Shown here piece after piece: positions 12,583-59,070 of a DNA stretch of 64,000 nucleotides (the stretch's first letter is position 1; the number at the start of each line of letters is the position of its first letter). Made by a program: the position numbers and the translations under genes. The notes below the pieces were generated by a model that made no database searches, was not told the origin of the DNA, and saw only the letters and a list, made by a program, of their open reading frames with translations. This DNA comes from an uncultured cyanobacterium (GTDB taxonomy: Bacteria; Cyanobacteriota; Cyanobacteriia; Cyanobacteriales; CAWUOF01), in assembly GCA_963744145.1 (NCBI GenBank), contig CAVUSO010000001.1, positions 1,934,831-1,998,830 on the forward strand, in the 5' to 3' direction.

Positions 12583-12892
12583 TGAAGTACAGTAAGATTT
12601 GGCATGAATGGTGGGACAGGCATCTTGCCTGTCAGAGATTGTAAGTGATCTGTGTTGGTTGGGCAGGTTTATGATAGTTATCTGTTTGGAGCAGAATTGA
12701 TTGGTGAACCTGCCCCTACAAATCCTGTTAATCTTGTAATCCTCTCATCCTGATCGATTTTTTGGTAAATCCCTGTAGGGGCGGGTTCACCGATGAACTT
12801 GCCACACACAAATAACCCTTGTGCCGAGCGCAGTCGAGGTATTAATGAACCCGCCCTGCCCCACAGATCACCTTGATGAACTTCATAAACCT
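12583..12892 (+). repeat. MITE-like dispersed repeat (GGTGAACCCGCCCCTAC core family), about 310 bp copy with nested inverted repeats
   Basis: Contains ggtgaacctgcccctacaaatcc ... ctgtaggggcgggttcacc and gatctgtgttggttgggcaggtttatgat ... aacccgccctgccccacagatcacc pairs. Direct copy at about 17895-18160, inverted partial copy at about 14014-14165. Confidence 0.7.
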
Positions 12893-12922
12893 GGAATAGG
12901 CTGTAACCATTGAAGCTGTACA

Positions 12923-13369
12923 TTATTTAGTTTCTGTAAGCAATTGTTCTAGAGTCTCAGGAAAATCACCATTAAAAACCATGCGAGAGAATACATTGTA
13001 ACAGTCATTTTTATCGCCTTCTTTGCGTGGAAATCCTAGCCAAAGAATAATCAAAACCTTACGATCATCTGCTTCAAAAGCTCGAAAAAATAAACGGTAG
13101 CGATCGCTTAGTCCCATACCCTTTAAGCGTCCGTAATGTCTGAGGGAACCTTTGAGGGCAAATTGAGGTGCAAAGGGATCAAGAACTATTTTCTCTTTGA
13201 TCCCTATCATCACTGCGGCTAGTAATTTAACGGTGGGATGTTTGACAAATTCTTCCCTAGGGAGACTGAGTTTTAGTTGGTTAACTTGTGCCTTTAGTTG
13301 TCGTCTTTGTTCCCCAAATAAGTTGTCATGGAAGTAGATTTCCCAGCCATTACGGACGATGACGCTCAT
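12923..13369 (-). CDS. yhaV: type II toxin, YhaV-family ribonuclease-like
   Basis: About 148 aa. 4 bp overlap with an upstream AbrB/SpoVT-type antitoxin. Size, arrangement and sequence character match PrlF/YhaV modules. Confidence 0.5.
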   Translation of the reverse strand: MSVIVRNGWEIYFHDNLFGEQRRQLKAQVNQLKLSLPREEFVKHPTVKLLAAVMIGIKEKIVLDPFAPQFALKGSLRHYGRLKGMGLSDRYRLFFRAFEADDRKVLIILWLGFPRKEGDKNDCYNVFSRMVFNGDFPETLEQLLTETK

Positions 13370-13695
13370 GGGTCAAGCTCAACTCCTGCAAGAAGTTCAT
13401 CATCTTCCTGGGCCATTGCTTCTGTATAGGCTTCTAACTTATCGCTATTTTTGAGAGCATCTTTGGTGATGAAGTCCAGAAATAAACTCAACATTAAATT
13501 ATCGTCTTCTTCTTCCTCATCTGCTTCAGGTGTAACTGGTTCAAGCTTTACCAACAAAGTATTATCAGGTAGCACTTTCACCCATCCAGTAGCATTGGCA
13601 AATTGGGGGTTGTCATGATAAAACGAGGCTGGCAATCTAAAGCCTAAAGAGTTGCCAATTTTGGCTGGTGAGAGGGTGTAGGTTTTGGAACTCAT
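13366..13695 (-). CDS. prlF: type II antitoxin, AbrB/SpoVT (PrlF-like) with acidic C-terminal tail
   Basis: N-terminal swapped-hairpin motif IGNSLGFRLPASF. Acidic C-terminus (EADEEEEDD). Overlaps the toxin start. Confidence 0.55.
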   Translation of the reverse strand: MSSKTYTLSPAKIGNSLGFRLPASFYHDNPQFANATGWVKVLPDNTLLVKLEPVTPEADEEEEDDNLMLSLFLDFITKDALKNSDKLEAYTEAMAQEDDELLAGVELDP

Positions 13696-14013
13696 ATATG
13701 TTAGTACAAATTGTAATAACGATAATGCTATACTAGCACGAAAGTTTAAGGTGGTTACAATCTAGGTATGGACAAGTTCAATCTATGAAAATTCGGGAGT
13801 TATGAGCGATCGCTATTTCTATGCTTGAAAGCTATAGACAAAATAAATATATTAAATTTTAACCATCTCCGTTAGTCAGATGGGGTGGATTCATCCATGT
13901 GATCTGTAAGGTTGGGCGGTGCAATTGTATGACCAAGGGAATAATTTCCAAACAATCAAGATTAAATTAGATGATCAGAATAGATGGTCGATAAATTTAT
14001 GATTACAATTAAC

Positions 14014-14165
14014 CAGGATTTGTAGGGGCGGGTTCACCAATTAATTTTGTGACAAACCGATCACCATTATAAACCCGCCCAACCAACACAGATCAATCAC
14101 AATCGACTTTAACTGATCGGACAGGCAAGATGCCTGTCCCACAATCTTACTGTACTTCATCAATA
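14014..14165 (-). repeat. MITE-like dispersed repeat, partial inverted copy
   Basis: tgtaggggcgggttcacc ... aaacccgcccaaccaacacagatc ... gacaggcaagatgcctgtcccacaatcttactgtacttcatca is the reverse complement of the 12583-12650/12700 segments. Confidence 0.65.
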
Positions 14166-14499
14166 TAGAAATCCGCTGTAAATCAATCAATTTCCTCTCT
14201 AATCTCATATTCACCTTGGGGATATCGCACCAATATCTCATCAGCTAAACATCCTGCTGTCTGTTCAAAAAAACTAGAAGGCCAGCCTAATTCTTCAGAA
14301 GTTTGAGGTGGAGTTTGATTGCTCAAATCGTTCATGATATTTTCTGGTAGATGATGAGCAAAATCAGGATAAATTATTATTTTACTAAATTTAACCTACT
14401 TTATAGGTCGGCACAGATTCCCATGATGCTATAGTATAGCAATTACCCAGGAAAGTCAAGGGGTAATTTCTTTTTACTTCACTTACTCGAAAATTAATT

Positions 14500-17436
14500 A
14501 TGACTAACCCTAGTTCCCAGCGTCCTCAAGTTTTTATTGAAAAAATTATGCCCGTGAAGTTACTCAACGAGCAGGTATATTACGAACATGGGGGTAATCC
14601 GTTTAAGGGTTTACATCGGTGGTATTCGCGCAAACCTTTGTCCTTTAGTCGAGCCAGTGTGTTAGCTTCCTTGTTACCTGGGGATGTGACGATCGAGGAG
14701 TTTAAATATCTGTTAGGTTTGTACCCAGAACAAGAAGGTTTAAAACCAGATCCTGATATTAAGCTGTATAAAACACCTCCTGGTAAATTGAGAATTAAAA
14801 AGGTGCAGGATTATTGTGAAAAATTGTGGGGAACTCGAACTCCTACAGTTTTAGATGCGTTTGCAGGTGGTGGGAGTATTCCCTTTGAAGCAGCAAGATA
14901 TGGGTTTAATGTATTAGCATCGGATTTGAATCCTGTTGCAGTTGTGACAATGAAAGCTGCGATGGAATATCCCCTAAAGTTTGGACCGGATTTGCAGCAG
15001 GATATTGATCAATGGGTGAAGTGGGTAGGTGATGAAGCCGAGAAACGGTTAGCTGAGTTTTTCCCTTCTTTACCTGGGGAAACTGTACAGAATTATCTGT
15101 GGGCGCATACAGTGGTTTGTCCGAATTGTGAATCGGTTGTACCTTTGAGTCCGAATTGGTGGTTATATAAACGTCCAGAAAAGCAGAATTTACATAAATG
15201 GTGTGCAGTAAAGCCAATTCCTAACATTGAGAATAAGCGGGTTGATTTTGAATTGGTGAAGGGGAAGAAGGGAAAAGGAACAACTATTCAAACTGATGAT
15301 GGGGAATATGATCCTGATACTACAACTACTATTGGTCGAGGTGTTGGTAGATGTCCTAATTGCGACAATGTGATCGAAGATGATGTAATTAAATCTCAAG
15401 CGCAATCAGGTATTTTAGGACATCAACTTTATGCAGTTGCTTATAAAAAAGGTAAAGGAAGTTTAGAATTTAGAATTCCCGAAGAATTAGATTTAGAAGG
15501 AATTGATAAATCTCAATGTTATTTAAAATCACAATTTTTGGAAATTCAAGCTAATGGTATTTTGCCTGATGTTGCAGTTACTCATGGACAAGAAACTGAA
15601 AGATTATTCTCAATTGGGATTGATAGCTGGTACAAATTCTTTAATCCACGCCAACTTTTAACACTTGTTACATATTTAGAAATTATCAATGAAGCAAAAG
15701 CACTAATTCAGACTAAATGTGAAGAAGAAAAAGAAACAGCGATCGCTAAATTAAAATCTAATCCAGAAGTAGAGGATATCCAGAGGGCGATCGCAAATAT
15801 TGAATCCTACTATCAGAATAAAATTGAGGCGATCGCCACTTATTTAGCTTTGGTATTTGATAGATGTGTTGACAGAAATTCTAGGCTTGGACATTGGCAT
15901 TCAGCTAGAGGCTATGCAGAGATAGCAATGGCTCAACATTCTCTAAATCTAAATTGGAATTATCCTGAAACTAGCGGTGCAGGTGAACTCTGGCAATCAT
16001 GCGCTGATGCCTTTATATCAGATTATCAAAATCTTTGTGCCTTATTCGGAACTAAACCAGATTCAACAGGTATTTTAGGAATAGAACAACACAATCTCAA
16101 ATCCATTCAAATTGATTCAGCATCTGCTGACAGTCTAACGCATATTCTTGATAACTCAGTAGATGCAATTATCACCGATCCACCTTATTACGCAACCATC
16201 CAATATGCGGAACTATCAGACTTTTTTTATGTCTGGCAAAAACGCACCCTCGGCGATATCTTCCCCGATCTCTTCTGGATGGAACTTACAGACAAAGATC
16301 GCGAAACTGTAGCCAATCCTTCACGCTTTCGCAACATGGGAGCATCCCCCGAAGAACTCGCCAACCAAGACTATGAAGCAAAAATGGCAATGGCATTTGC
16401 TGAATATCATCGTGTCTTACGAGAAGACGGAGTAATGACCGTGCAATTCAATCACAAAGAATCAGGAGCATGGGATACCCTAGCATATTCCTTAATTAAT
16501 GCAGGTTTCGAGATCACCGCATCATGGTCAGTCAGCACCGAAAACCCCCAAAACCTCCACCAAGCCCAAAAGAACTCCGTCGCTAGTACAGTATTACTCG
16601 TGTGCCGCAAACGCGACCCCAACGCTGAACAAGCCTGGTGGGATGACCTCCGCCCCGAAGTCTCCAACCTAGTCGAACAACGCGCCCCAGAATTTGAAGC
16701 CAATGATATTCAAGGGATTGACCTTTATCTCAGCGCCTTTGGTCCGGCCCTCAACGTCTTCTCCCGCTCCTGGCCAGTTCTTGATAGTACAGGTAACGAA
16801 GTCCGCCCCGAAGTTGCATTTGCTGAAGCTCGCAAAGCTGTTGCTAACTACCGCTTCCGCAAACTCGCTCAAACCGACACAATGGGTTTTGACCCCGTTA
16901 CCCAATGGTATTTTCTCGCTTGGGATGCTTTCCGCGCCCGCGAATTTCCCTTTGATGACGCTCGACAACTTGCCCTAGCAGTAGGTGGTTTCAATGTCGC
17001 AGACCTAGGAAAAAGCTACAAAATCCTCGACATCAAAAGCGGTACTTGTAAATTCCTCAGCCCCGAACAACGCTACAAAAAACACGCATTCTCGATCGCA
17101 GACAATGAATTTTCTGCCCGTTATCTCATTGACGGACTCCACGCGATCATTGCTATCTATCAACAAGAACAAACCATCGAACCAATCCGCCGTTTTATGA
17201 AAGCCACAGAACTAATCAGCAATGATAAGTTTATGCGAGCTTGGGAAATAGCATTAAAAGTTATCCCTCGCATCGGAGACGATCGCAAACGCATCCCCGA
17301 AGAAAAAGCCTTATTAAATTTATGGTTAGCAATGGATGAAATCAAAGCCAAAGTAGTTTATGTGCAGCAGGAATTGCTTTTAGGACCTGGACAATTGACT
17401 TTAGATTTAAAAAGTGTTATTGATGAAGATAAATAA
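14500..17436 (+). CDS. DUF1156 / COG1743 Zn-ribbon N6-adenine DNA methyltransferase (defence-associated)
   Basis: N-terminal GGNPFKGLHRWYSRKP (DUF1156 signature). Zn-ribbon CPNCES...CPNCDN. Motif IV DPPY (IITDPPYYATIQY). Confidence 0.8.
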   Translation: MTNPSSQRPQVFIEKIMPVKLLNEQVYYEHGGNPFKGLHRWYSRKPLSFSRASVLASLLPGDVTIEEFKYLLGLYPEQEGLKPDPDIKLYKTPPGKLRIKKVQDYCEKLWGTRTPTVLDAFAGGGSIPFEAARYGFNVLASDLNPVAVVTMKAAMEYPLKFGPDLQQDIDQWVKWVGDEAEKRLAEFFPSLPGETVQNYLWAHTVVCPNCESVVPLSPNWWLYKRPEKQNLHKWCAVKPIPNIENKRVDFELVKGKKGKGTTIQTDDGEYDPDTTTTIGRGVGRCPNCDNVIEDDVIKSQAQSGILGHQLYAVAYKKGKGSLEFRIPEELDLEGIDKSQCYLKSQFLEIQANGILPDVAVTHGQETERLFSIGIDSWYKFFNPRQLLTLVTYLEIINEAKALIQTKCEEEKETAIAKLKSNPEVEDIQRAIANIESYYQNKIEAIATYLALVFDRCVDRNSRLGHWHSARGYAEIAMAQHSLNLNWNYPETSGAGELWQSCADAFISDYQNLCALFGTKPDSTGILGIEQHNLKSIQIDSASADSLTHILDNSVDAIITDPPYYATIQYAELSDFFYVWQKRTLGDIFPDLFWMELTDKDRETVANPSRFRNMGASPEELANQDYEAKMAMAFAEYHRVLREDGVMTVQFNHKESGAWDTLAYSLINAGFEITASWSVSTENPQNLHQAQKNSVASTVLLVCRKRDPNAEQAWWDDLRPEVSNLVEQRAPEFEANDIQGIDLYLSAFGPALNVFSRSWPVLDSTGNEVRPEVAFAEARKAVANYRFRKLAQTDTMGFDPVTQWYFLAWDAFRAREFPFDDARQLALAVGGFNVADLGKSYKILDIKSGTCKFLSPEQRYKKHAFSIADNEFSARYLIDGLHAIIAIYQQEQTIEPIRRFMKATELISNDKFMRAWEIALKVIPRIGDDRKRIPEEKALLNLWLAMDEIKAKVVYVQQELLLGPGQLTLDLKSVIDEDK

Positions 17437-17450
17437 GTGAAGCTAAAATT

Positions 17451-17774
17451 ATGAAAATTAAAGGTATTAAACGCGGTATCATGATTGAATTATTTGAAGA
17501 AATCGATATTCCTGATGGGATGGAAGTGATGGTTGAAATTCAAAATAGTCATCCTCTTGCAGGACTAAGTAAAGAAGAAATTCAAAAACGGATCAATAAA
17601 GTAGCAGGAGTCTGGAAAGACGATCCAGAAATTGAGCAAATCTTTGCAGAAATAAATCAAGAACCTTTGGAAATTGAGCGATCGGCTACAACCATCTCGC
17701 AACGAATGAAGCAATTTGCCCAAGATGGTATTGATCTAGATGCTAAAGAAGGCTTAACACAATTGAGAGAATAA
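17451..17774 (+). CDS. hypothetical small protein downstream of the MTase
   Basis: ORF 14 nt after the MTase stop. A partial duplicate of its 5' end (MKIKGIK...) follows at about 17769-17885. Confidence 0.35.
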   Translation: MKIKGIKRGIMIELFEEIDIPDGMEVMVEIQNSHPLAGLSKEEIQKRINKVAGVWKDDPEIEQIFAEINQEPLEIERSATTISQRMKQFAQDGIDLDAKEGLTQLRE

Positions 17775-17894
17775 AATCATGAAAATCAAAGGTATTAAAC
17801 AGGGTGTAACAGCGGTAGATCGTGGCAACCCAAACGCGATCGCGCAATTTAGTCATAAAACTGAATTACCACAAAAATACAGCGGATGACCCGT

Positions 17895-18160
17895 TGATGA
17901 AGTACAGTAAGATTTGGCGCTAATAGCGATAAGTTAAAGTCAATTGTGATTGATCTGTGTTGGTTGGGCGGGTTTATGATGTTGATCTATTTGTGTCAGA
18001 ATTAACTGGTGAACCCGCCCCTACAAATCCTGGTTTATTGTCCTCATAAATTCATCGACAATACATTTTTATGAGCTAGTAGGGGCGGGTTCACCGCTGA
18101 ATTTGCCACACACAAATAACTTTAATAAACCCGCCCAACCTCACAGATAACCTTGATGAA
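17895..18160 (+). repeat. MITE-like dispersed repeat (same family as 12583-12892)
   Basis: tgatgaagtacagtaagatttgg ... gatctgtgttggttgggcgggtttatgat ... ggtgaacccgcccctacaaatcctgg ... gtaggggcgggttcaccg ... aacccgcccaacctcacagataacc. Confidence 0.7.
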
Positions 18161-18300
18161 AACTACCCCATCTTACATCACAGACAACACTGCTATACTT
18201 CATAAATAGGTCATACGCTAGATCTCATCCAGATTGAGAGTCTTTAAAATGTCACAAGGCACATCAAAGATAACGATGCTGGACTTTTAAGGTATTTTTT

Positions 18301-21300
18301 ATGAAAAAATTGCGCGATCGCTATTGGAAAATCGGTTATGGTAGTGATGAAGATAACCTAATCGTTGATTTTTATATCCCGGCTCTTGAATGTGCCCTCC
18401 AATACGATCGCAAAGCCGGATTTTTTAATAGTACCATACTCAGTCGCGTCGCCAGAGGATTAGGAGCATTATTAGCAAATCAAGGACGAATGCGCTTAAT
18501 TATGGGTTGTCAGTTTTCTCCTGAAGACTTACAAGCGGTTCAACAAGGTTACGCATTACGAGAAACCCTAACTCATCGACTAGATCAAGAACTTACTCCA
18601 CCTGTCAACTTTGCCCAGCTCAAACATTTTGAAATCCTCAGTTGGTTGATTCAAAATGAATATCTCGATATTCGCATTGCAATTCCCCTCAAACCTAATG
18701 GTAATCCTGAATCCTCAGAATTGGTATTAGATCCAAAGCATTTATTTCACGAAAAAGTAGGCATTATTTCCGATGTAAATGGCGATCGCCTAGCTTTTAA
18801 TGGTTCCAATAATGAATCAATCGGTGGATGGCAATCTAACCTAGAATCATTTCATGTATTTTTTTCCTGGGATGGTGGTAGCGATTTACAAAGAGTACAA
18901 CATGAATGCGATCGCTTTGAGCGTCTTTGGAATGATGAACTTCCCAATGTGCGAGTATTTGAAATTCCTACAGCAGTAAAACAAAAACTATTAAATTATA
19001 CCCCAAACCAAAAACCCGACTGGAATCCGCAAGCAGAATTTAATACCAGCCCCATCACTTATTTAGAAACAATAAATGAGTTCCAAATCTCTGAAGAAGA
19101 ACTACAAAAAGAACGAGAACAATTTACCCAACTTGCTAATATTCATCACCATCCTGGTTGTCTAGACTTCTCAGTTAAATCAATTCCCATCAAACCTTGG
19201 GCACATCAACTAAAAATCTTGCGACGGATAGCAGCAGAGTTTCCCCGTAATGCTTTAATTGCTGATGAAGTAGGTTTAGGTAAAACCATTGAAACCGGTT
19301 TAATATTGCGTTACTTGCTGCTCTCGAAAAAAGCAACGCGAGTGTTAATTTTAGTACCAGCTAGTGTACAACCTCAGTGGCAAGAAGAAATGCGGGAAAA
19401 ATTTAACTTGCACTTCTGGTCCTATGGCAAAAATGAACTGGTTGATCCGTACCAACAATCAGTCGCGATCGCCGGAAATCTTTGGAATCAGAAAAACCTG
19501 ATCCTTGCATCTAGTCATCTAGTCAGACGCAAAGAACGAATGCAAGAATTACTAAACTCTGAAGCATGGGATTTAATCGTTTTAGATGAAGCACATCACG
19601 CAAGAAGAAAAAGCCCTCAAAATCACAAAGATACTCCCAACCGTCTACTTGAACTAATGGAGCGTCTGAGAACAAATACTCAAGCTTTGCTACTCCTTTC
19701 TGCAACACCAATGCAAATTGATGCGATCGAAATGTTTGATTTAATCAAGTTACTTGGTTTAAAAGGTCATTGGGAATTTCCTGATAATTTTTGTCATTAT
19801 TTCGCCACTCTATCTGAATCACCTAATAAAGATATGCTCAACTTTTGGCAAACCATGTCTACAGATTATTTTGATCATGGTGGTCAGCCTTGTAGTAAAA
19901 TTCAGAAAGGATTAGAAACTAGCGATCGCCTGTTATTTTATCAACTTGAGGATATTTGGCGCAATGGTCAGAAAATAACTAATCCTCAGAAATATCTAGC
20001 CGATGATAATTTTATCAGTGCATCTCAAAGATTTCTGGCAACTAATACACCGATTAAAGACTTAATGTTTCGCCACACCCGCGATACATTGCGAGAATAT
20101 TTTAAACGTGGTTTATTAGCTCAAGATGTACCGATAAGAGAGGTATTTGATCATGCAATTGCTCTCGAAGCAAATCGCGAAGTTCATCTCTATATTGCTG
20201 TTAGTGATTACGTGCGACATTTTTACCGTCTCGCGCAAAAGGAAAACCGCAAAGCCCTGGGTTTTCTAATGACCCTATATCGTAAACGTCTCACCAGTTC
20301 TTTCTATGCGATCGAGAAATCATTACAACGTAGATTAGATTATTTACTTACTCAACAGGGTAGCTTATTAGGAGATGATGACTACAGCGATCTAGAAGAT
20401 GCCGATGATGCTATTATTGAAGGCTTAGAATCCTTCATGGAACCCATAGATCCAAAGGAAATTGAATATTTACAAGATTTATTGCATCAATTTGACAATA
20501 CAGGGGAAGATACCAAGCGATCAAAATTTATCAACAAATTAAGACAAGAATTCTTAGAGCGTGATAGTGCGATCATCTTTACCCAATATACCGATACAAT
20601 GGACTATTTGCGCGATATCTTAACTCAATTATATGGTTCATCAGTTGCCTGTTATTCAGGAAGGGGTGGAGAAATCAATTATGATGGTAAATGGCAAATT
20701 ATCCCCAAGGAAGAAATCAAAAGACGGTTTCGTGATGGGGAAATTAAAATCTTGCTATGTACCGAGTCAGCTAGTGAAGGGCTAAATTTACAAACTTGTG
20801 GAGTTTTATTTAATTATGATATGCCTTGGAATCCGATGCGAGTGGAGCAGCGGATCGGACGGATTGATCGGATTGGTCAAAAATTCTCTCAAGTCAGAAT
20901 CCATAATTTTTACTATGACGGAACAGTAGAAGCAAAAGTCTATCGTAAATTGCGCGATCGCATCCAAGCATTTACCACAGTAGTTGGTAATCTGCAACCC
21001 ATCCTCGCTCTTGTACCTACTTTTATTGAAAAAGCAGTAATGAGTGCCGATCCCTTAGAAGAAAATGTCTTGCTGTCGGAATTTGAGCAAACTTTGGATA
21101 TATCACCTTTACAACCTGCACTTAATGATGCTGTCGCAATGGATGTGGAAGCCGATCTTACTGAACTTCGTCAACCAATCCCATCATCTCCCTTTAATGC
21201 TGAAATAATCGAACAGGTTTTGACGCGATCGCGACTATTACAGAAAGCCGGAATTAGGTTTGAGAAGATCGCAGAAAAGCTGTGGAAATTACAATTAGAA

Positions 21301-21426
21301 GATCAATCTTATCAAGTTACCTTTTATGCCGATACTTTTGACGAACATCCATCTTTGCGATTAATGACTTTTGGTGATCCTATTTTTGAGCTCCTGTTGC
21401 ATAAACGTTTAGCGTCAGCAACCTGA
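18301..21426 (+). CDS. PLD-family nuclease domain fused to SNF2/DEAD-like helicase (defence-associated)
   Basis: HxKxxxxD motif (HEKVGIISD) at the N-terminus. Helicase motifs I (DEVGLGKTIE), II (VLDEAHHARR), III (SATPMQ) and C-terminal helicase block (LLCTESASEGLNLQ, QRIGRIDRIGQ). Confidence 0.8.
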   Translation: MKKLRDRYWKIGYGSDEDNLIVDFYIPALECALQYDRKAGFFNSTILSRVARGLGALLANQGRMRLIMGCQFSPEDLQAVQQGYALRETLTHRLDQELTPPVNFAQLKHFEILSWLIQNEYLDIRIAIPLKPNGNPESSELVLDPKHLFHEKVGIISDVNGDRLAFNGSNNESIGGWQSNLESFHVFFSWDGGSDLQRVQHECDRFERLWNDELPNVRVFEIPTAVKQKLLNYTPNQKPDWNPQAEFNTSPITYLETINEFQISEEELQKEREQFTQLANIHHHPGCLDFSVKSIPIKPWAHQLKILRRIAAEFPRNALIADEVGLGKTIETGLILRYLLLSKKATRVLILVPASVQPQWQEEMREKFNLHFWSYGKNELVDPYQQSVAIAGNLWNQKNLILASSHLVRRKERMQELLNSEAWDLIVLDEAHHARRKSPQNHKDTPNRLLELMERLRTNTQALLLLSATPMQIDAIEMFDLIKLLGLKGHWEFPDNFCHYFATLSESPNKDMLNFWQTMSTDYFDHGGQPCSKIQKGLETSDRLLFYQLEDIWRNGQKITNPQKYLADDNFISASQRFLATNTPIKDLMFRHTRDTLREYFKRGLLAQDVPIREVFDHAIALEANREVHLYIAVSDYVRHFYRLAQKENRKALGFLMTLYRKRLTSSFYAIEKSLQRRLDYLLTQQGSLLGDDDYSDLEDADDAIIEGLESFMEPIDPKEIEYLQDLLHQFDNTGEDTKRSKFINKLRQEFLERDSAIIFTQYTDTMDYLRDILTQLYGSSVACYSGRGGEINYDGKWQIIPKEEIKRRFRDGEIKILLCTESASEGLNLQTCGVLFNYDMPWNPMRVEQRIGRIDRIGQKFSQVRIHNFYYDGTVEAKVYRKLRDRIQAFTTVVGNLQPILALVPTFIEKAVMSADPLEENVLLSEFEQTLDISPLQPALNDAVAMDVEADLTELRQPIPSSPFNAEIIEQVLTRSRLLQKAGIRFEKIAEKLWKLQLEDQSYQVTFYADTFDEHPSLRLMTFGDPIFELLLHKRLASAT

Positions 21427-21512
21427 AACAGGGTGAGTAAAGCCCACCCTGATCGATCTATTCTGCTCCGACAATTGGTGCAAATCCTTGACGTTGAACA
21501 TTCTCAGTCATA
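21427..21512 (+). repeat. about 85 bp direct duplicate of the putA 3' end plus downstream hairpin (att-like remnant)
   Basis: Near-identical to 33553-33645. Minus-strand reading gives ...TENVQRQGFAPIVGAE*, identical to the PutA C-terminus. Contains hairpin cagggtgagtaaagcccaccctg. Confidence 0.7.
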
Positions 21513-21540
21513 GTTCGCGATCGTCTTAACTTGGGGGTCT

Positions 21541-33363: not shown

Positions 33364-33548
33364 GCAGGGCTGTTTCATGCTCGATTCTCAGATAATCGAC
33401 CTAACCCCCCAACCCTCTTCCCTGCGAGGGAAGGGGGAGTAATTCTTATGGTTAAATTGATCGGATTTAATCAGAGTCATTCTGCTCCCCTTTCCTAAAA
33501 GGAAAGGGGTTGGGGGAGAGGTGTTCTGGTAGCATGAAACAGCCCTGC
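33364..33548. repeat. about 185 bp palindromic MITE-like element with 18 bp perfect terminal inverted repeats and internal G/C-rich hairpins
   Basis: gcagggctgtttcatgct ... agcatgaaacagccctgc termini. Internal ccccaaccctcttccctgcgagggaaggggg and ctcccctttcctaaaaggaaaggggttggggg hairpins. Confidence 0.6.
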
Positions 33549-33552
33549 TAAA

Positions 33553-33645
33553 ACAGGGTGAGTAAAGCCAACCCCGATCGATCTATTCTGCTCCGACAAT
33601 TGGTGCAAATCCTTGACGTTGAACATTCTCTGTTACTGTTCGCGG
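33553..33645 (+). repeat. putA 3' end / downstream segment duplicated at 21427-21512
   Basis: About 85 bp near-identical direct repeat. This copy is part of the intact putA gene. Confidence 0.7.
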
Positions 33646-38165: not shown

Positions 38166-38381
38166 TTACTGTTTGCCATAGAACATAAAATTAATCTCCT
38201 CTGACTCATCGTCAAAATCATCAGCAATCCAAACGCGCCCTTCCCAAGCACCTGGAGTACGTGGCTCAAGTTTTCCCTGATCACTAAGCTCCAATGGTTG
38301 ATCAAAATCATCTGAACCACAATTTAAACCCATGATCGCCGCTTCCGAAAAAATTTCCCTTAAATCATACCAATTCACCAT
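38166..38381 (-). CDS. hypothetical small acidic protein
   Basis: ORF starting at the internal Met (MVNWYDLREIF...). The annotated longer N-terminus lies inside a repeat copy. Acidic C-terminal half. Confidence 0.3.
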   Translation of the reverse strand: MVNWYDLREIFSEAAIMGLNCGSDDFDQPLELSDQGKLEPRTPGAWEGRVWIADDFDDESEEINFMFYGKQ

Positions 38382-38557
38382 GAAGATACATTGATGTATA
38401 TTGATCTGTGGGTGAGGGTGGGTTTTGATGATTAGTAGGTAAATGTCAAACATCTCGGTGAACCCGGGCGGGTTTTTCTAATTAATTGGTAAATTTCAAA
38501 AATCTGGGCGAACCCGCCCCTACTACAGAAATCCGCAAATTGAGGATAAAATTGGTA
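38368..38557 (+). repeat. left half of a MITE-like element split by IS insertion
   Basis: Identical to 58765-58957 (...gaggataaaattggtag). Continues at 40288 after the IS. Confidence 0.75.
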
Positions 38558-40290
38558 GATACTGTCTTGATTTGTCAAGGGGTAGCGATCGCCAAATTGC
38601 CTAATTAGGGTCAAAGAGTTTAGCAGATTTGAAAATCGCCAAAATATGGTTAGGGATTTTACCATTAAAGCACTAATCTCCTGGATTTTTACCTGACCCA
38701 CGCAGCCATCATCTCTCACTCATTAATGGGAGTAATGAGTGGTGAAGCATCGTGACTGTGGGCAGAAAGGCGAGCATTTTTGGCACTGGAAACCCGACGG
38801 ATTGACCCTAACTATAGAGCCACCGTTTGTTCACCCATACTGGGAATAGAAGTCAACCAGTTCCGTAGTTGTTTAAGCGAGATCCTCTCGATGCACAGTC
38901 GTCAGTTTCGTCTGTTCATCTTGGTTGAGGGATGAACATGTTCTGGTGGCGAGATTTCGCCCGCCAGATCCCATCTAGACGGGTAAAGGGGTAGCGCTCG
39001 CATAATTGGGGTCAAAAGGTGTTTGGGATTTTAAAATCCCAAACGCCAAATGTAGGAGTTTTCGCATCAGGGCTCCAACCACCTGCATTTTCACCTTGCC
39101 ACGCTCCAATAATCGCTCACTCATTGCCTTGAGTAATGGGTTATGACTCATCGCTACTACGGCGGGCATATAAGCGCGCTTTTCGCAGTCGAGTATTGCC
39201 TATACAAGACAAGCGAGTTTTACCATGAACTGAAGTTCCTGAACTCCGCTCGCAGGGATTTAACCCAACATAAGCAACTAATTGGCGGGCATTTTTATAA
39301 TCGGTAATCCGACCAATTTCAGCTAACAATACAGCCGCAGTTTGTTCGCCAATTCCCGGAATTGAAGTCAACAGCTCACGTTGTTTTTTCAAATGGGGAT
39401 GTTGGTCAAAATGGTCGCGAATTAATTGTTTGATCTCAGCTTGTTGTTGGGCGAGATATTCTAGATGCTTTCTCGTTATCAGCGCGACAGATTCGCTCTC
39501 GGTTTCGAGCCGATTCTGCTCCTGTTGCGCGATTTCGATGAAGGATTCTAGTCGTCTGAGTAGGGCTTGTAATTCCTTAACTTCCGGTGCTGTTGGTTTC
39601 CAAAATGACGGCTTCATCGCCACACAAAAACGCGCAATTAAGCCTGCATCTACCGCGTCGGTTTTCGTTCGCAGGAGTTCACTTTTGGCAAATCCTTTGA
39701 TCCGCGCTGGATTAACGATACTTACCTGATAACCAGCCTGGTAGAGGAATTCAGCTAATGCTTCCCCATAAATACTGGTCGCTTCTAAGCAAGCATGAAG
39801 TTCTACCACACCTTGACATTTGAGCCATTGTGCTAAACTTTCAAACCCTTCTAGATCATTAGTAAACTTTTTTGGTTTTGGCTTTTTCCCACAGTCCAGT
39901 TTCAATAAAACGACATGAAAGTCTTTTTTACTGATGTCTATTCCTAAGACTGTAGATGTCATAAGTTTCTCCTGATGTCGAGTTGATGGGTGAGAACTTG
40001 ACAGACATTAAACTAACCTTGTTAATACAGGCTATCTCGTGACCACGAGTGCCTTAGATACTGTCGAGTTTTCTGTGCGTCTGTCATCAGCGACTGGGAG
40101 CTTATCTACAAAACAGACTTATGAGGTCTGAGGGGCGGGCCAACTTCACCACTTGCTGATGTTCTTCAGCACACTTTCTCATCTCTACTGAGCTGAGGTC
40201 GAAAACTTTTCTAGTTTCTTTAGATTTCTCACTAATCCTTGATGTACCTGCATCTTGGTAGTCCAATTATCTGTATCCTTTAAAGATACA
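38558..40290 (-). mobile_element. IS110-family insertion sequence (about 1.7 kb) inserted into a MITE-like repeat copy; carries a partially duplicated 3' segment
   Basis: Transposase gene on the minus strand. Insertion point defined by comparison with the uninterrupted repeat at 58765-59070 (ggtag|gggcagg). 38560-38960 resembles the transposase 3' end (GQVKIQEISALMVKSL... versus GKVKMQVVGALMRKLL...). Confidence 0.7.
38975..39962 (-). pseudogene. IS110-family transposase, frameshifted (273 aa N-terminal ORF plus 64 aa C-terminal ORF)
   Basis: N-terminal DEDD_Tnp_IS110 (LGIDISKKDFHVVLL). Transposase_20 (IPGIGEQTAAVLLAEIG). C-terminal LLERGKVKMQVVGALMRKLLHLAFGILK in a different frame. Frameshift in the gcgcgc run near 39150. 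Confidence 0.75.
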
Positions 40291-40410
40291 AGGGGCAGGT
40301 TCACCAGTCAATTTTGCTACCAACAGATCACCATTATAAACCTGCCCTGACTTAACAGATCAACCTCAGATTAAGTGCAATTTCATAGTTAATTGGTATC
40401 AGCACCACCA
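40288..40410 (+). repeat. right half of the MITE-like element split by the IS
   Basis: gggcaggttcaccagtcaatttt...caacagatcaccattataaacctgccctg...tcaacctcagattaagtgcaatttcatagttaattggtatca matches 58958-59066. Confidence 0.75.
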
Positions 40411-40419: not shown

Positions 40420-41214
40420 TTATAAATTTTTATCCCATTCTAACTGATGACTTAAACCATATTTAATAAATTCTTCTGGGGTCACTCGATCATTTTTACC
40501 AAACACCCCTAAACTATAAGGATTTTCTTGCATTCTTTCTCTGACTAATTCCTGTTCAAATTGTTTCACTTCGGCTCTAGGTTGATCAGGTTTAAAGAAA
40601 TCTACAACTAAAACAGTTCTGTCATAGTTGGTGTAATTATGAGGACAATGGGGGTAGCTATGATCTAAAACTAAAAATTCGCCTTCATGCCAATAAAATT
40701 TGTCATGGCATATTTTCATTGCCACATCTCCAACCGGAACAATCAATCCTAAATAACCGCGATTCATGTGGGGATTATAGTTAACATGAAGTTTAACATC
40801 TAATCCGGGATGAAATGTGCCAAAATAGACATTTCTGAGAATATGATCATTGATAGAGTTGGTTTGAGCGATCGCCTGACTTAACTGAGGAAAGTATCTT
40901 TCTCGTAATTCCAGTGCTGTTTGCTGGACATCCTGCGACTCATATTGCGGATATTGAATTTGATGGACTTGAATATATTCTTCAATAAATATTCCTTGAA
41001 ATAATACCCCAAAAGCGCTATATTTAGCGTTACCTTTAGTTTTAATCGTTTTATTTTTCGGTCCCATGACATCAATACTAAACTGTAACTCTTCCTGAGA
41101 AGCTTGATTTTTAAAGTGAGTAAATTCATCTCTAATCGCTTCCCAGTTTTCTTGGAGATTGTTTAGAAAAGTAAATTGTTTGGGGTCTAAATTGTACTCG
41201 GTAAAATTTGCCAT
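40420..41214 (-). CDS. aspartyl/asparaginyl beta-hydroxylase-family (AspH/LpxO-like) 2OG-Fe(II) oxygenase domain protein
   Basis: Conserved His-rich core (HPGLDVKLHVNYNPHMNRGYLGLIVPVGD...WHEGEFLVLDHSYPHCPHN) resembles the Asp_Arg_Hydrox domain. Confidence 0.45.
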   Translation of the reverse strand: MANFTEYNLDPKQFTFLNNLQENWEAIRDEFTHFKNQASQEELQFSIDVMGPKNKTIKTKGNAKYSAFGVLFQGIFIEEYIQVHQIQYPQYESQDVQQTALELRERYFPQLSQAIAQTNSINDHILRNVYFGTFHPGLDVKLHVNYNPHMNRGYLGLIVPVGDVAMKICHDKFYWHEGEFLVLDHSYPHCPHNYTNYDRTVLVVDFFKPDQPRAEVKQFEQELVRERMQENPYSLGVFGKNDRVTPEEFIKYGLSHQLEWDKNL

Positions 41215-41296: not shown

Positions 41297-42790
41297 GTGT
41301 CAGAAATTACATTTTTGGATCTAATTATTAAGAACGTCCGCGTAGTTCGTCCCAATCAATCATCCATAGAATGCTGGGATCTGGGAATTAAGGATGGTAA
41401 ATTTAGCCAAATTTCGCCGCAAATCAGTCCAGATCAGGGTAAAGAAGTGTTTGATGCACAAAATCTGCTCGGTTTTCCCGGAGTCGTTGATGCTCATACA
41501 CATATTGGAATTTATCAACCTCTGGAACAAGACGCGATTACCGAAAGCAAAGCAGCAGCAATGGGAGGAGTAACTACTACTCTAACCTATATTCGCACGG
41601 GTCAGTATTATCTGAATAAAGGTGGTTCTTACCGGGATTTTTTCCCAGAAGTATTAGCTTTGTCATCGGGCAATTTTTTTGTTGATTATGGTTATCACAT
41701 CGCTCCAATTAGTTCTCAGCATATTGAAGAAATGCAGTGGTTATTTGATGAATATGGAGTTGCTTCATTCAAAATTTTTATGTTTTATGGGGGATATGGT
41801 CTCCATGGACTTTCCGATCAACAAAATCTATTTTTAATGATTAATAAAGACGATCGCTATGATTTAGCCCATTTTGAATTTATTATGAGGGGACTGTCGC
41901 AACTCCGAGAACGCTACCCCAGTCAGAAAGATATCATCAGTCTCAGTTTGCATTGTGAAACCGCTGATATTCTTAATGCTTACACTAAAATTGTGCAGCA
42001 AGACCCTAATCTCACCGGACTTAATGCTTATAGTGCAGCACGTCCTCCCCACTCAGAAGGGTTAGCAATTTGCATTGCATCTTATCTGGCTCACGAAACG
42101 AATTGTGTTAACATTAATTTGCTACATCTCAGTTCTCGTAAAGCTGTGGAAGCAGCGTTGATGATGCAAAAAACTTTTCCCCACATCAATTTTAAGCGAG
42201 AAGTTACAGTCGGTCATTTGTTGTTAGATGTAGATGTATCTACGGGTAAATGGGCAAAAGTTAATCCTCCTATTCGTCCCCGTGCTGATGTGGAATTTTT
42301 ATGGAATGCAATATTAGAAAATCAGATCGATTGGATTGTGAGCGATCATGCTTGTTGTGCTACGGAGCAAAAAGCTAGTTTAAGAGATCCGAATAATATT
42401 TGGCTGGCTAAATCTGGTTTTGGTGGTACTGAATATCTCCTTTCTGGTATGATTAGTGAAGGCAGCAAACGGGGAATGTCTTATAATCAAATAGCAAAGC
42501 TACTTGCTTGGAATCCTGCACAAAGATTTGGCTTATTCCAAAAAGGTGACATCGCGATCGGCTATGATGCTGATTTGGTGCTAGTAGATCCTGATGAAAC
42601 TTTTGTTGTTCGTGCTGCGGAATCATTTTCTCAACAGGGTTATACTCCCTTTGAGGGAATGGAGTTAACGGGACGAGTTAAAAATACGTTTTTGCGAGGG
42701 AATTTGATTTACGATCGCACCCAAGTAATAGGTTTACCTCAAGGGCGTTATTTAAAGCGATTGCTTGTAGGCGATCGCCGATTTTCATAA
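41297..42790 (+). CDS. cyclic amidohydrolase (dihydropyrimidinase/hydantoinase/allantoinase family)
   Basis: Metal-binding GFPGVVDAHTHIG. About 497 aa. C-terminal YDADLVLVDP...GRV typical of D-hydantoinase-like enzymes. Confidence 0.7.
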   Translation: MSEITFLDLIIKNVRVVRPNQSSIECWDLGIKDGKFSQISPQISPDQGKEVFDAQNLLGFPGVVDAHTHIGIYQPLEQDAITESKAAAMGGVTTTLTYIRTGQYYLNKGGSYRDFFPEVLALSSGNFFVDYGYHIAPISSQHIEEMQWLFDEYGVASFKIFMFYGGYGLHGLSDQQNLFLMINKDDRYDLAHFEFIMRGLSQLRERYPSQKDIISLSLHCETADILNAYTKIVQQDPNLTGLNAYSAARPPHSEGLAICIASYLAHETNCVNINLLHLSSRKAVEAALMMQKTFPHINFKREVTVGHLLLDVDVSTGKWAKVNPPIRPRADVEFLWNAILENQIDWIVSDHACCATEQKASLRDPNNIWLAKSGFGGTEYLLSGMISEGSKRGMSYNQIAKLLAWNPAQRFGLFQKGDIAIGYDADLVLVDPDETFVVRAAESFSQQGYTPFEGMELTGRVKNTFLRGNLIYDRTQVIGLPQGRYLKRLLVGDRRFS

Positions 42791-54761: not shown

Positions 54762-54965
54762 CCATTGATGAGATTGATCTGTGGGTGGGGGTGGGTTTTT
54801 ATAATTAGTGGGTAAATTGCCAAAATCCGGGTGAACCCACCCCTACAATAATCGGCAAATTGAGGATAAAATTGATGGAAAAATATGTGATTAAATTGGT
54901 AGGGAGAGGTTCACCAATAAATTTGTTACCAACAGATAACGATCATAAACCTGTCCCGTTCTCCC
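54762..54965 (+). repeat. MITE-like dispersed repeat, divergent copy
   Basis: gatctgtgggtgggggtgggttt...ccgggtgaacccacccctacaa...gaggataaaattgatgg...gagaggttcaccaataaattt...cagataacgatcataaacctgtccc. Confidence 0.65.
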
Positions 54966-57171: not shown

Positions 57172-57198
57172 TCAAACCTATAGTCAAAAATTAATTTT

Positions 57199-58146
57199 AT
57201 GCAATGTCCAAAATGTCATAATTCCGTCCAAATTACCGACCGTTTTTGTGAAGAATGCGGGACAGAACTAATGGTAACTAATTTGAGCAGTGCGATCAGC
57301 AACTGTGAAAAATGTGGTGCAGATGCGGAGCAAATTGATCAGGAAGGATACTGCTCTAATTGTGGATTTCGTCGAGAAGAAAGAGAAACAGATCGGATTG
57401 AAATAAATTGCTCTCCCTGTTTAGCTGGGATCAGCGATCGGGGACTTAGACATCATCATAATCAAGATTATATCGCTGTTCAACATATAGAGCATACGGA
57501 CATATTAGTTGTATGTGATGGAGTTTCCAGTTCCGAATCACCAGAATTAGCAGCAAAAGCTGCTGCTGTAAGTGCTTGTCACAGTTTAGTAACTGCGGTT
57601 GAAAATAATATTCCCTTACCAGCAGCAATCAAACAAGCGATCGCAGCAGCACAAGCAGCAGTATGTGCTGTTCCTTATACCACACCGACAGAAAACTCAC
57701 CATCAACTACCATTGTCGCAGCGATCGTGCAAAATAGTATGGCTGTAATTGGTTGGTTAGGAGATAGTCGTGCTTATTGGATTTCTGACCAAGATTCACA
57801 ACAATTAACCACTGACGACTCTTGGTTAAATGATATGATCGCATCCGGTCAATTGACCGAAGCAGAAGCAATCCAATCAGACAAAGCACACGCAATTACT
57901 CGTTGGTTAGGAGCAGATAATAGCGACACTGAACCATCGATTATTACTTTTCCTTTTGCTAATTCTGGATATTTGTTACTATGTAGTGATGGTCTATGGA
58001 ACTATTTACCTAAATCTGCACAAATTGCTGAACTTGTCAAGCTCAATATCAAATCAGATACCATAACAATTTCGCGCTCGTTAGTTGAATATGCGCGACA
58101 CTGTGGCGGGCATGATAATATTAGTGTGGCGATCGCAAAAGTATAA
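57199..58146 (+). CDS. PP2C-family Ser/Thr phosphatase with N-terminal double zinc ribbon
   Basis: CPKCH...CEECG and CEKCG...CSNCG. PP2C motifs (GISDRGLRHHHNQD, VCDGVSSS, LLCSDGLWN, GGHDNISVA). Confidence 0.8.
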   Translation: MQCPKCHNSVQITDRFCEECGTELMVTNLSSAISNCEKCGADAEQIDQEGYCSNCGFRREERETDRIEINCSPCLAGISDRGLRHHHNQDYIAVQHIEHTDILVVCDGVSSSESPELAAKAAAVSACHSLVTAVENNIPLPAAIKQAIAAAQAAVCAVPYTTPTENSPSTTIVAAIVQNSMAVIGWLGDSRAYWISDQDSQQLTTDDSWLNDMIASGQLTEAEAIQSDKAHAITRWLGADNSDTEPSIITFPFANSGYLLLCSDGLWNYLPKSAQIAELVKLNIKSDTITISRSLVEYARHCGGHDNISVAIAKV

Positions 58147-58149
58147 TAT

Positions 58150-58262
58150 TTGATAAATTGTTGAAGCAAACGTAAATTATCTAGCATCCGAATATAAGCT
58201 TTCACTTGGGGATATTTTTGATTAATTTTCCAGGAGAAACTAGCGATCGCTACTAAATATTT
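58150..58262 (-). repeat. diverged/truncated copy of the about 140 bp peptide-encoding repeat
   Basis: caaacgtaaattatctagcatccgaatataagctttcacttggggatatttttgattaattttccaggagaaactagcgatcgc. Confidence 0.6.
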
Positions 58263-58341
58263 TTGCTCTGATATTTACTCCTCAATAAAAAGTCCATTCT
58301 ATTATCCCAATTCAGGCGATCGCCCTTTTAATCCAACAACA

Positions 58342-58611
58342 CTAACCCCGGATCGGACAAAGACTGAGAGTGGAACAATCAACTTTAATTCTCGGACGCA
58401 GTTCAACTTGAACCAAAGTCTTTAACTCTTCATTTTGTGGTGCTACAAAAAATTCTAATTTGCCGTTAATATAGTCAGTAATTTTAATCATATTCACCAA
58501 TTCAAAACACATAATTCCTATCGTTGCATCGGCTATTTTTAATTGAATTTGAACTGATTCTTGAATAATATTTATTCCCAACTTGAGAGTAACACCTAAC
58601 GAATCTGTCAC
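58342..58611 (-). CDS. hypothetical protein (weak)
   Basis: ORF only. An upstream same-frame segment is separated by TAA. Confidence 0.2.
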   Translation of the reverse strand: MTDSLGVTLKLGINIIQESVQIQLKIADATIGIMCFELVNMIKITDYINGKLEFFVAPQNEELKTLVQVELRPRIKVDCSTLSLCPIRG

Positions 58612-58764
58612 TTCATAACACCAATAACCATCGGACGGTTGAGATTTTTTCGGTTCTTCACAAAATAATTATAGGAAAGCTAGTTCATCAAATCCACCTT
58701 GCAGATTGATTTTTGTCATTTTTTTACCTAAGATATCAGGTCATTTTCCATATATTATAGCACT

Positions 58765-59070
58765 GATACCAATTCACCATGAAGATACATTGATGTATAT
58801 TGATCTGTGGGTGAGGGTGGGTTTTGATGATTAGTAGGTAAATGTCAAACATCTCGGTGAACCCGGGCGGGTTTTTCTAATTAATTGGTAAATTTCAAAA
58901 ATCTGGGCGAACCCGCCCCTACTACAGAAATCCGCAAATTGAGGATAAAATTGGTAGGGGCAGGTTCACCAGTCAATTTTACCACCAACAGATCACCATT
59001 ATAAACCTGCCCTGGCCTAACAGATCAACCTCAGATTAAGTGCAATTTCATAGTTAATTGGTATCACCTC
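58765..59070 (+). repeat. intact about 300 bp MITE-like element (reference copy; equals 38368-38557 plus 40288-40410 joined)
   Basis: Continuous identity to both flanks of the IS110 insertion. Confidence 0.8.

Follow-up and report, generated by a model that had tools for sequence, protein, structure and literature searches.

A 64-kb stretch of the genome of an uncultured cyanobacterium (contig CAVUSO010000001.1; hereafter the window) carries a family of hairpin-forming repeats at seven dispersed loci. Judged from the structure of the repeats and from the genes that accompany them in related genomes, these are probably repetitive extragenic palindromes (REPs), in part paired as REP doublets forming hairpins (REPINs), with units that are recognized as folded single-stranded DNA by the REP-associated tyrosine transposase (RAYT) of subclass 2.4 belonging to the same genome. 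The original prediction had assigned the repeats to a family of MITEs (miniature inverted-repeat transposable elements) that encode no transposase and are mobilized in trans. The repeats have no mover of their own and mobilization in trans is most plausible; however, the assignment to the MITE class was wrong.

The repeat family and its elementary unit

The dispersed repeats were borne out by two kinds of search. The core 17-mer GGTGAACCCGCCCCTAC has nine matches in the window at two or fewer mismatches, against zero in 100 dinucleotide-preserving shuffles, and an nhmmer search of the 64 kb with a profile built from 151 related units places 14 repeat units at the same seven loci. A blastn-short search with all copies as queries agrees with the profile in confining family members within the window to copy G (594–665), copy A (12563–12892), copy C (13895–14178), copy B (17876–18160), copy D (38367–38558 and 40291–40401), copy E (54762–54965) and copy F (58764–59066). 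Copies A, B and C are referred to as type I and copies D, E and F as type II. An extra weak nhmmer match at 37002–37031 is a bare half-stem GGGCGGGTT without a partner and was dismissed as probable chance. The window has a G+C content of about 39% and is rich in GCGATCGC; a scan of its whole length at the Rfam gathering threshold gave zero matches.

Two copies had been reported as 100% identical over some 190 bp. This is correct for the left parts of copies D and F, which are identical over 192 nt (38367–38558 and 58766–58957), and the identity is taken, as before, as a sign of recent duplication. The right parts (40291–40401 and 58956–59066) are 96% identical. The mismatches are unevenly divided by the point at which an IS110-family insertion sequence (IS) interrupts copy D, with 0/192 to the left and 4/111 to the right (p ~0.02 if random), a split suggestive of gene conversion, or of recombination that broke at the IS.

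When the matches are lined up by the orientation of their GTAG tetranucleotide, the core sequence of the original prediction proves to form the head of a stem-loop tagged with GTAG. All copies share a unit that consists of GT(A/G)G, GGGCGGGTT(CACC), a variable loop and (A)AACCCGCCC(C), with a G+C stem of 9–10 bp (GGGGCGGGTT / AACCCGCCCC) and a total length of about 59–60 nt (4 + 9 + 35–38 + 9). A contig scan using one genome per species found the exact core at at least 113 loci from at least about 60 assemblies; the source genome contributes none of these loci, and shared genes are only about 72% identical. The listed core loci are all cyanobacterial and nearly all from filamentous forms (Microcoleus, Tychonema, Oscillatoria, Symploca, Planktothrix and Roseofilum), with the core also listed in some Calothrix, Nostoc, Trichormus, Chroococcidiopsis and Gomphosphaeria. 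The same unit recurs on different contigs of single related genomes, e.g., on nine contigs of one Oscillatoria metagenome-assembled genome (MAG), six contigs of Symploca SIO2E6 and four scaffolds of Tychonema bourrellyi. Full-text literature searches with the core and the stem sequences gave no relevant paper, and the consensus given below appeared in none of the papers that could be searched.

Unit statistics were compiled from the window and 119 loci, which gave 510 strand-wise readings of about 255 units, and 151 distinct units were aligned. The tetranucleotide ahead of the stem is GTAG in 248 readings and GTGG in 62, with every other at 20 or fewer; the units of the window carry GTAG, decayed or truncated ones excepted. 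In the alignment, the tag and both halves of the stem are nearly invariant (consensus GTaGGGGCGGGTTcaCc...ataAACCCGCCCC; tag region GTaGGGGCGGGTT), and the loop has almost no conserved positions. An RNAalifold analysis of the 151 units found the 9-bp stem GGGCGGGTT/AACCCGCCC to be paired in 139–151 of them at each position and found no helix within the loop, only the main stem. Pairing of the stem is maintained, as seen from two double changes, GGGCAGGTT/AACCTGCCC in the left unit of copy A and the right units of copies D and F, and GGGTGGGTT/AACCCACCC in the left unit of copy E. Loop length falls within 35–38 nt in 96% of the 510 readings.

This length is held across at least about 60 genomes while the sequence is free. 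The window has loops of two classes, CACCAnTnAATTnTG...ATA and CnCCCAGATTTTTGAAATTTACC...AAA. The same REP units also form long regular tandem arrays in Symploca and Microcoleus (L015:2900–5100, L117:1600–2900 and L035). Their periods are about 213, 150 and 96 nt, and as many as 15 cores lie within 2 kb; the L117 array lies directly upstream of a RAYT gene.

The nested hairpins of 150–300 nt are two or three head-to-head inverted units (...CCCCTAC, spacer, GTAGGGG...) together with flanks that were copied along. Copies A, B, D and F are such head-to-head doublets with spacers of 31–55 nt. RNA folding, which had been proposed as a check, shows copies A, B and F as long imperfect hairpins that fold far better than shuffles (z of −4.9, −9.9 and −4.6); copy E folds no better than shuffles (z −0.3). 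The nested inverted pairs ascribed to every copy are not present in copies C and G, which are single units. All copies were said to be intergenic, and this is so except for copy A, which starts within the last codons of a Uma2 gene; several lie within 6–28 nt of gene ends. The stop codon at which copies had seemed to begin is the first TGA of the element's own conserved motif TGATGAAGTACAGTAAGATT. Open reading frames (ORFs) at 38166–38453, 38432–38719 and 14041–14241, all on the minus strand, cross the repeats; such short ORFs are probably not genes, in line with the original prediction, which took them for artefacts.

A candidate subclass 2.4 RAYT and remnants of its gene

REPs are marked by GTAG as a tag at the base of a palindrome, and they are associated with RAYT proteins, also called TnpA-REP (PMC8266576; PMC3733652). 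Subclass 2.4 of the TnpA-Y1 proteins (Bertels group 4), which is associated with canonical long and double-foot REPs, is common in Cyanobacteria (PMC6006769; PMC5581495). Its motifs, NH[IFV]H / WQ / YIxNNP, differ from the DH[VI]H ... Y[IV]ENQ of subclass 1.1, the IS200 type (PMC6006769).

All ORFs of the fetched loci were searched for HUH/Y1 motifs. Among the loci selected by the core, two such proteins were found, one in Microcoleus (L074:3529–4092) and one in Calothrix (L026:1193–1744). Both match Pfam Y1_Tnp and score 82.4 and 81.9 bits with the NCBIfam model NF047646 (REP_Tyr_transpos), about 2 bits above its cut-off of 80; scores with the IS200 model are 24–27, below the cut-off of 55. 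In each locus the gene lies directly between the same REP units. In Microcoleus, 45 nt separate the end of a ...GGTGAACCCGCCCCTAC unit from the ATG, and 9 nt separate the stop codon from the start of a GTAGGGGCGGG unit. The motifs NHIH, WQ and YIINNP, together with at least three G-C pairs at the bottom of the stem, match subclass 2.4 and its canonical long REP, and double-foot units (GTAG...CTAC) are present in L026 and in a further locus, L025.

Since these two loci had been selected by the repeat itself, an independent test was made by choosing loci from the protein only. The RAYT protein has 7,961 homologs at E ≤ 1e-10, many of them named RayT by JGI. In all four lineages chosen in this way (Oscillatoriales CG2_30_40_61, Limnoraphis robusta, Symploca SIO2G7 and Rivularia IAM M-261), GT[AG][AG]GGGCGGGTT units lie within 250 nt of the RAYT gene, with a nine-unit array near the gene in Symploca SIO2G7. 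The RAYT gene is thereby found flanked by these REPs in six lineages other than that of the window (L074, L026, L114/115, L116, L117 and L118/119).

Within the 64 kb, regular expressions and tblastn identified no RAYT gene, just two short remnants of its 3' end. The candidate enzyme is P0015, a RAYT homolog of 186 aa that is 78% identical to the Microcoleus protein, with NHIH and YIINNP intact. P0015 is recorded once, on a single contig. Since P0015 and P0121, a protein encoded within the window at 41297–42787, are each recorded on one NCBI/ENA contig of 7,634,710 bp, the two are very probably on the same chromosome.

The remnants of the gene are in copies B and C. In the spacer of copy B, the minus-strand frame 18079..18047, whose first base is the G of the adjoining GTAG, reads LAHKNVLSMNL followed by TGA and agrees with the C-terminal tail of P0015 (...LDHKNVLSMNLLS) at 10 of 11 residues. 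Upstream of the REP of copy C, NNFQTIKIKLDDQNRWSINL followed by a stop codon corresponds to SNSQKINIKLDHKNVLSMNL in P0015, with 11 of 20 residues matching. Each remnant is 22 nt from the GTAG core. When six-frame matches to the RAYT tail from the window and the 119 loci are ranked, those of copies B and C come right after the true genes, save for one unrelated match in L050. The resemblance extends to the DNA, in which 40/54 nt of copy B (74%, z 9.1) and 43/62 nt of copy C (69%, z 7.0) are identical to the end of the Microcoleus RAYT gene and the short gap that separates it from GTAG.

In the array upstream of the Microcoleus gene, the spacers are fusions of the RAYT leader with the 3' end of the RAYT gene. 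Given these spacers and the remnants in copies B and C, the type I copies have the appearance of fragments, or of versions with internal deletions, of the RAYT locus, that is, of a RAYT gene between its own REPs (REPtron), and we infer that units may have spread from this locus. A more specific proposal is that the type I copies are miniature REPtrons, each made up of an inverted REP (iREP), the last 35–60 nt of the RAYT gene, a REP and the downstream flank, that were copied around the chromosome and seeded REP doublets. This is possible, though tentative; the current literature has no evidence for mobility of tnpA-REP (PMC8266576).

A mechanism may be outlined as follows. The non-coding units would be recognized as folded single-stranded DNA by a single-copy HUH/Y1 RAYT of subclass 2.4 encoded elsewhere, for which P0015 is the candidate. 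The E. coli enzyme depends on GTAG and on the hairpin, and its cuts fall at CT dinucleotides adjacent to the REP (PMC8266576). By analogy, the RAYT would recognize a unit by its GTAG motif and stem and then cleave and rejoin single-stranded DNA. Occasionally, it would copy a REP doublet into a new intergenic site without target-site duplication (TSD). Type I copies A, B and C would arise from the REPtron, with copies B and C keeping the last 35–60 nt of the RAYT gene beside GTAG, and the REP head would serve in turn as an insertion target of an IS110-family element. Mobilization of the units by the RAYT, and its pathway, are drawn here by analogy.

Several points weigh against this account. 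Even for the E. coli model, the pathway by which REPs disseminate is unresolved, and mobilization in vivo is undemonstrated for any RAYT (PMC8266576); the literature searched yielded no biochemistry or activity of a subclass 2.4 RAYT. A unit of about 60 nt with a loop of 36 nt exceeds the usual REP size of 20–50 nt (PMC8266576). The block duplicated in copies D and F measures 303 nt, and its outer inverted repeat of 20 nt lies about 45 nt beyond the REP units, an arrangement that is MITE-like and not derivable from known RAYT cleavage. A RAYT-tail origin was rejected for the spacers of copies A, E and F, whose resemblance to the RAYT 3' end is not significant (z < 1). The NF047646 scores apply to the Microcoleus and Calothrix proteins only, with their narrow margin. 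Finally, in the source genome the putative pairing of this RAYT with these repeats relies on orthology, the shared contig record and the 3'-end remnants.

Alternative explanations and known systems

The earlier view was that of a classical MITE family, consisting of internally deleted derivatives of an IS with a DDE transposase (e.g., of the IS630 type, like Nezha) that are recognized by terminal inverted repeats and moved by cut-and-paste with TSD. The size of 150–300 nt, the absence of coding capacity and the hairpin potential all fit, and copies D and F have in common an outer inverted repeat of 20 nt (TGATACCAATTCACCATGAA / TTCATAGTTAATTGGTATCA) and an identity over 192 nt that suggests a recent move of unit length. 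In addition, TA adjoins CCAATT...AATTGG at both ends and can be read as a TA duplication. However, the flanks of copy D (...CCCTTAAA and GCACCACC...) and of copy F (...ATAGCAC and CCTCAATA...), where TSDs were looked for, contain no duplication beyond that explained by the inverted repeat. Only D and F match in their ends, those of type I (TACAGCGGAT...TGATGAAGTACAGTAAGATT) being unrelated to those of type II (TGATACCAATTCACCATGAA), whereas every copy has the internal GTAG stem-loop, as do at least about 60 other genomes across cyanobacterial orders. No DDE transposase with these ends was seen in the window or the 119 loci, the nearby IS110 has unrelated ends, the associated enzyme in relatives is HUH/Y1, and what copies B and C hold is a remnant of a RAYT gene, not of an IS. 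A classical MITE family is thus quite unlikely. The hairpins might instead be the former ends of a mobile IS200/IS605 element of the ordinary kind, with a multi-copy TnpA-IS200 as the mover in place of a domesticated single-copy RAYT. Such an enzyme has the same fold and chemistry (Pfam Y1_Tnp), its gene would likewise lie between hairpins, IS200-type TnpA is common in cyanobacteria (PMC6006769), and gene 3'-end remnants in dispersed copies resemble internal-deletion derivatives of a mobile IS. This origin is very unlikely when it is considered that the two flanked proteins that were checked reach the cut-off of the NCBIfam RAYT equivalog model and miss that of IS200, that NHIH / WQ / YIINNP are motifs of subclass 2.4 and not 1.1, that P0015 is recorded just once, and that the GT[AG]G tag is the REP signature.

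Selection for a function in place of mobility, with the hairpins acting as 3'-end stabilizers, terminators or protein-binding sites in RNA or DNA, would account for the intergenic position of the copies, several of them 6–28 nt from gene ends, and for the stems maintained by compensatory changes; E. coli REPs do stabilize the 3' ends of mRNA (PMC12642595; PMC8266576). Such an explanation is highly improbable on its own. There is no Rfam match, the loop sequence is free, units occur in both orientations relative to genes and at non-orthologous sites between genomes, tandem arrays reach 15 cores (L015 and L117), and copies are decayed (E and G) or interrupted (D). Roles of this kind are compatible with, and secondary to, a REP/RAYT origin. 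The clustering of seven loci within 59 kb, and the uneven mismatches on the two sides of the IS110 in copy D with their hint of conversion, would also fit a local segmental duplication, or gene conversion, limited to this region, but the flanking genes are unrelated at each copy and the unit recurs on many contigs of the single Oscillatoria, Symploca and Tychonema genomes given above, which makes this the least credible explanation and an extremely improbable one.

A REP/RAYT system of subclass 2.4 remains the preferred assignment, and the likeness to described systems of that subclass is extensive. The units, written here as GTAGGGGCGGGTT, carry GT[AG]G at the hairpin foot and at least three G-C pairs at the bottom of the stem, occur as inverted doublets and arrays, and lie outside genes at the seven loci of the window. 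In relatives, as in the described systems, a gene bearing NH[IFV]H / WQ / YIxNNP is placed between its own REPs and appears to be single-copy. The window family differs in its unusually long loop of fixed length (35–38 nt) and drifting sequence, in dispersed copies that keep a piece of the 3' end of the RAYT gene, and in the roughly 45 nt of extra inverted-repeat sequence that copies D and F carry outside the REP units. REPs of subclass 2.4 have been called long with reference to the stem (PMC6006769). The E. coli REPs, which occur in bacterial interspersed mosaic elements (BIMEs), likewise combine a REP and an inverted REP with a linker, and the alternation of head-to-head and tail-to-tail pairs is found in L074. 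In contrast to E. coli, in which the TnpA-REP is of subclass 2.2, the RAYT here is of subclass 2.4 in a cyanobacterial host; the E. coli enzyme needs a bulge in the stem, whereas the stem here is perfect and the loop much larger.

Among repeats described in cyanobacteria, the Nezha MITE of Nostocales (Zhou et al. 2008, as cited in PMC3733652) is also small, non-coding, hairpin-forming, intergenic and moved in trans, and the 20-nt outer inverted repeat of type II copies adds to the likeness. The window family departs from a Nezha-type MITE in having no TSD at copies D and F, termini that are unconserved across the family, a conserved internal GTAG stem-loop and an associated HUH/Y1 enzyme in place of a DDE one. 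Closer in form are GTAG-12, GTAG-15 and GTAG-16 of Anabaena, Nostoc and Cyanothece (Di Nocera et al. 2013; PMC3733652), which are GTAG stem-loops that are often dimers within longer palindromes. Loops are given as 9–15 nt for GTAG-15 and are 36 nt here; these families were compared by description only.

Copies, an IS110-family insertion and neighboring genes

The 1.7-kb gap within copy D, passed over in the original prediction, is an IS110-family insertion of 1732 bp on the minus strand (38559..40290) that splits the copy in two. Its transposase is frameshifted (39141–39962, 273 aa, and 38975–39169, 64 aa), matches Pfam PF01548 (DEDD_Tnp_IS110) and PF02371 (Transposase_20), and scores 202.9 bits with NF033542 (IS110 family RNA-guided transposase; cut-off 140). 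A comparison with the intact copy F puts the insertion point precisely within the REP head, at the CT of ...GCCCCTAC. On the plus strand, ...CCTGCCCCT is joined to AC... and AG is present at both junctions; in the orientation of the IS, ...GGTGAACCTGCCCCT precedes the element and CTACCAATTT... follows it, with CT at both junctions.

The non-coding left end of the element (39963–40290, minus strand) contains TGGTGAAGTTGGCCCGCCCCT (also given as CCCGCCCCT), which resembles the target (REP consensus at this place, TGGTGAACCCGCCCCT), and GACAGTATCT, which equals the right end of the IS plus the CT core. The target has the form CCCGCCCCTAC and the donor junction reads ...GACAGTAT-CT-TGTATC.... Work on IS621 from 2024 reportedly leads one to expect target and donor guide strings in the bridge RNA of an IS110 element, and TGGTGAAGTTGGCCCGCCCCT and GACAGTATCT would be guide-like strings of this kind. 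The left end is predicted to fold as RNA into two stem-loop domains that are marginally better than shuffles (z −1.85), which lends weak support, and a scan of it against Rfam by E-value gave zero matches. Two further elements were noted. An IS110 of 75% identity in Oscillatoriales PH2015_09S (L084:1–1096) has the same junction, ...AAGATACAA followed by GGGGCGGGTTCGCC, and a third (L064, from 3488 onwards) also comes after ...TGTAG.

Insertion of IS elements into the REPs of Pseudomonas is said to have been reported by Tobes and Pareja in 2006, and IS621 of E. coli is likewise said to be an IS110-family element that inserts into REPs. That IS110 elements insert into REPs is known in Pseudomonas, with ISPpu9 in P. 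putida as a case (PMC12288879). Like such REP-targeting elements, the one in copy D occupies a CT core inside a CTAC/GTAG head and has guide-like strings in its non-coding end.

Copy D itself is of type II. The left part (38367–38558) begins with an outer inverted repeat, (T)CATACCAATTCACCATGAA, and has two minus-strand inverted REP units, 38409–38466 and 38466–38523, one truncated and one full, in a 50-nt register; it ends with the spacer and the first bases (GTAG) of the right-hand REP head. The right part (40291–40401, plus strand) supplies the rest of this REP, GGGCAGGTT...AACCTGCCC at 40293–40347, and an outer arm that ends in AATTGGTATCA, 18 nt from the stop codon of a minus-strand gene (40420–41214). 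Copy F is the intact, uninterrupted counterpart of copy D, in which the 20-nt outer inverted repeat pairs 58764–58783 with 59047–59066; within it are inverted units at 58808–58865 and 58865–58922 (minus strand), a spacer at 58923–58953 and a plus-strand REP at 58954–59016. The decayed copy E consists of a minus-strand inverted REP (54781–54852) with the compensated stem GGGTGGGTT/AACCCACCC, a spacer (54847–54898) and a degenerate plus-strand REP (54899–54957; GTAGGGAGAGGTT...AACCTGTCCC), and lies between two same-strand genes, 25 nt past a stop codon and 28 nt ahead of a start codon.

Of the type I copies, copy A opens with an outer arm (12563–12660) of TACAGCGGAT and then TGATGAAGTACAGTAAGATT, whose first TGA is the stop of the Uma2 ORF. 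There follow a minus-strand inverted REP (12661–12719) with the stem variant GGGCAGGTT/AACCTGCCC, a spacer (12720–12774), a plus-strand REP (12775–12860) and a short outer arm to about 12892. Compared with copy B, the right REP of copy A has an insertion of about 25 nt in its loop (12817–12841; GCCGAGCGCAGTCGAGG; CCTTGTGCCGAGCGCAGTCGAGGTA), which brings the loop to 60 nt; no second copy of this insertion was found in the window or the 119 loci. Copy B, also a head-to-head doublet, has an outer arm (17876–17965), a minus-strand inverted REP (17966–18024), the spacer with the RAYT remnant (18025–18078) and a plus-strand REP (18079–18140) with a short outer arm up to 18160. Copy C, a plus-strand single unit, had been given limits of 14014–14165 but extends left to about 13895, where a fragment of the distal stem of an inverted REP (~13895–13925) precedes the RAYT remnant (13940–14002, ...NNFQTIKIKLDDQNRWSINL and stop), the GTAG REP (14022–14084, plus strand) and an outer arm (14085–14178) that ends in ATCCGCTGTA. 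The order within type I outer arms is CACAGATCAATCACAAT...AATCTTACTGTACTTCATCA...ATCCGCTGTA. Copy G is a solitary, decayed plus-strand REP unit, detected by nhmmer (E 8e-6) and blastn-short, with the head CTAAGGGTGAGTT, the 3' stem AACCCACCC and a beta-class loop; its start is 6 nt past the stop codon of ORF 127–588.

Very small hairpins are nested within the larger repeats. A perfect mini-hairpin, GTGG-GACAGGCA-TCT-TGCCTGTC, lies in the outer arm of copy A (12610..12633, plus strand) and recurs in copy C (14120–14143, minus strand); copy B lacks it at the corresponding position, and it also occurs at L003:5225–5245. This looks like an independent short element, similar to a REP or a small dispersed repeat (SDR), that came to lie inside the larger repeat by insertion. 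Elhai and colleagues reportedly described small dispersed repeats of Nostoc in 2008.

Beside copy B, the start of a 107-aa ORF (17451–17774; MKIKGIKRG...) is duplicated just downstream as a 36-aa ORF (17779–17889), with 17444–17477 repeated at 17772–17805. The shorter ORF enters copy B and ends at the TGA right after the TACAGCGGA motif, which suggests that the repeat truncated a tandem paralog. An Hma-like anti-phage defense island (7580–21426) comprises an HmaC-like AAA+ ATPase/DUF499 gene (7580–10819), an HmaB-like DUF1156 adenine methylase gene (14500–17436) and an HmaA/DrmD/PbeA-like SNF2 helicase gene (18301–21426). HmaC and HmaB are separated by REP copies A and C together with a PDC-S03-like gene, the Uma2 endonuclease gene and a YhaV/PrlF toxin-antitoxin pair; just ~0.8 kb lies between the HmaC and HmaB genes in Microcoleus F8-C3 (L100).

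Repeats of other kinds are present in the window. At 1–3070, a tandem duplication of about 2.48 kb (88–97% identity) affects repeat-rich protein genes (ORFs 127–588 and 898–3069), and copy G lies between the two copies. A 97-nt direct repeat that is 93% identical (21423–21519 and 33548–33644) and unrelated to the REP family lies at the 3' ends of two coding sequences on opposite strands, the SNF2 helicase gene and a 991-aa ORF (33583–36558). Several direct repeats of 155–257 nt (62–95% identical) at 58093–62973 mark tandem paralogous minus-strand genes (59336–62971) just downstream of copy F.

REP/RAYT systems, the cyanobacterial subclass 2.4, long and double-foot REPs and the targeting of REPs by IS110 elements are all already described, and none of the findings overturns current understanding. 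For annotation, the seven loci should be recorded as REP/REPIN sequences of a RAYT system rather than as MITEs, together with the IS110 in copy D. This element is a natural cyanobacterial example of an IS110 with guide-like strings that match a REP head. The repeats and the enzyme would represent a conserved REP/RAYT pair of subclass 2.4 spanning several cyanobacterial orders, with experimental handles in the invariant GTAG and 9-bp stem, the length-fixed and sequence-free loop, and the dispersed copies with RAYT-gene remnants. If the type I copies are indeed miniature REPtrons, they would provide direct sequence evidence on the birth of REPINs and on past mobility of the REPtron, akin to the way in which MITEs arise from IS elements.

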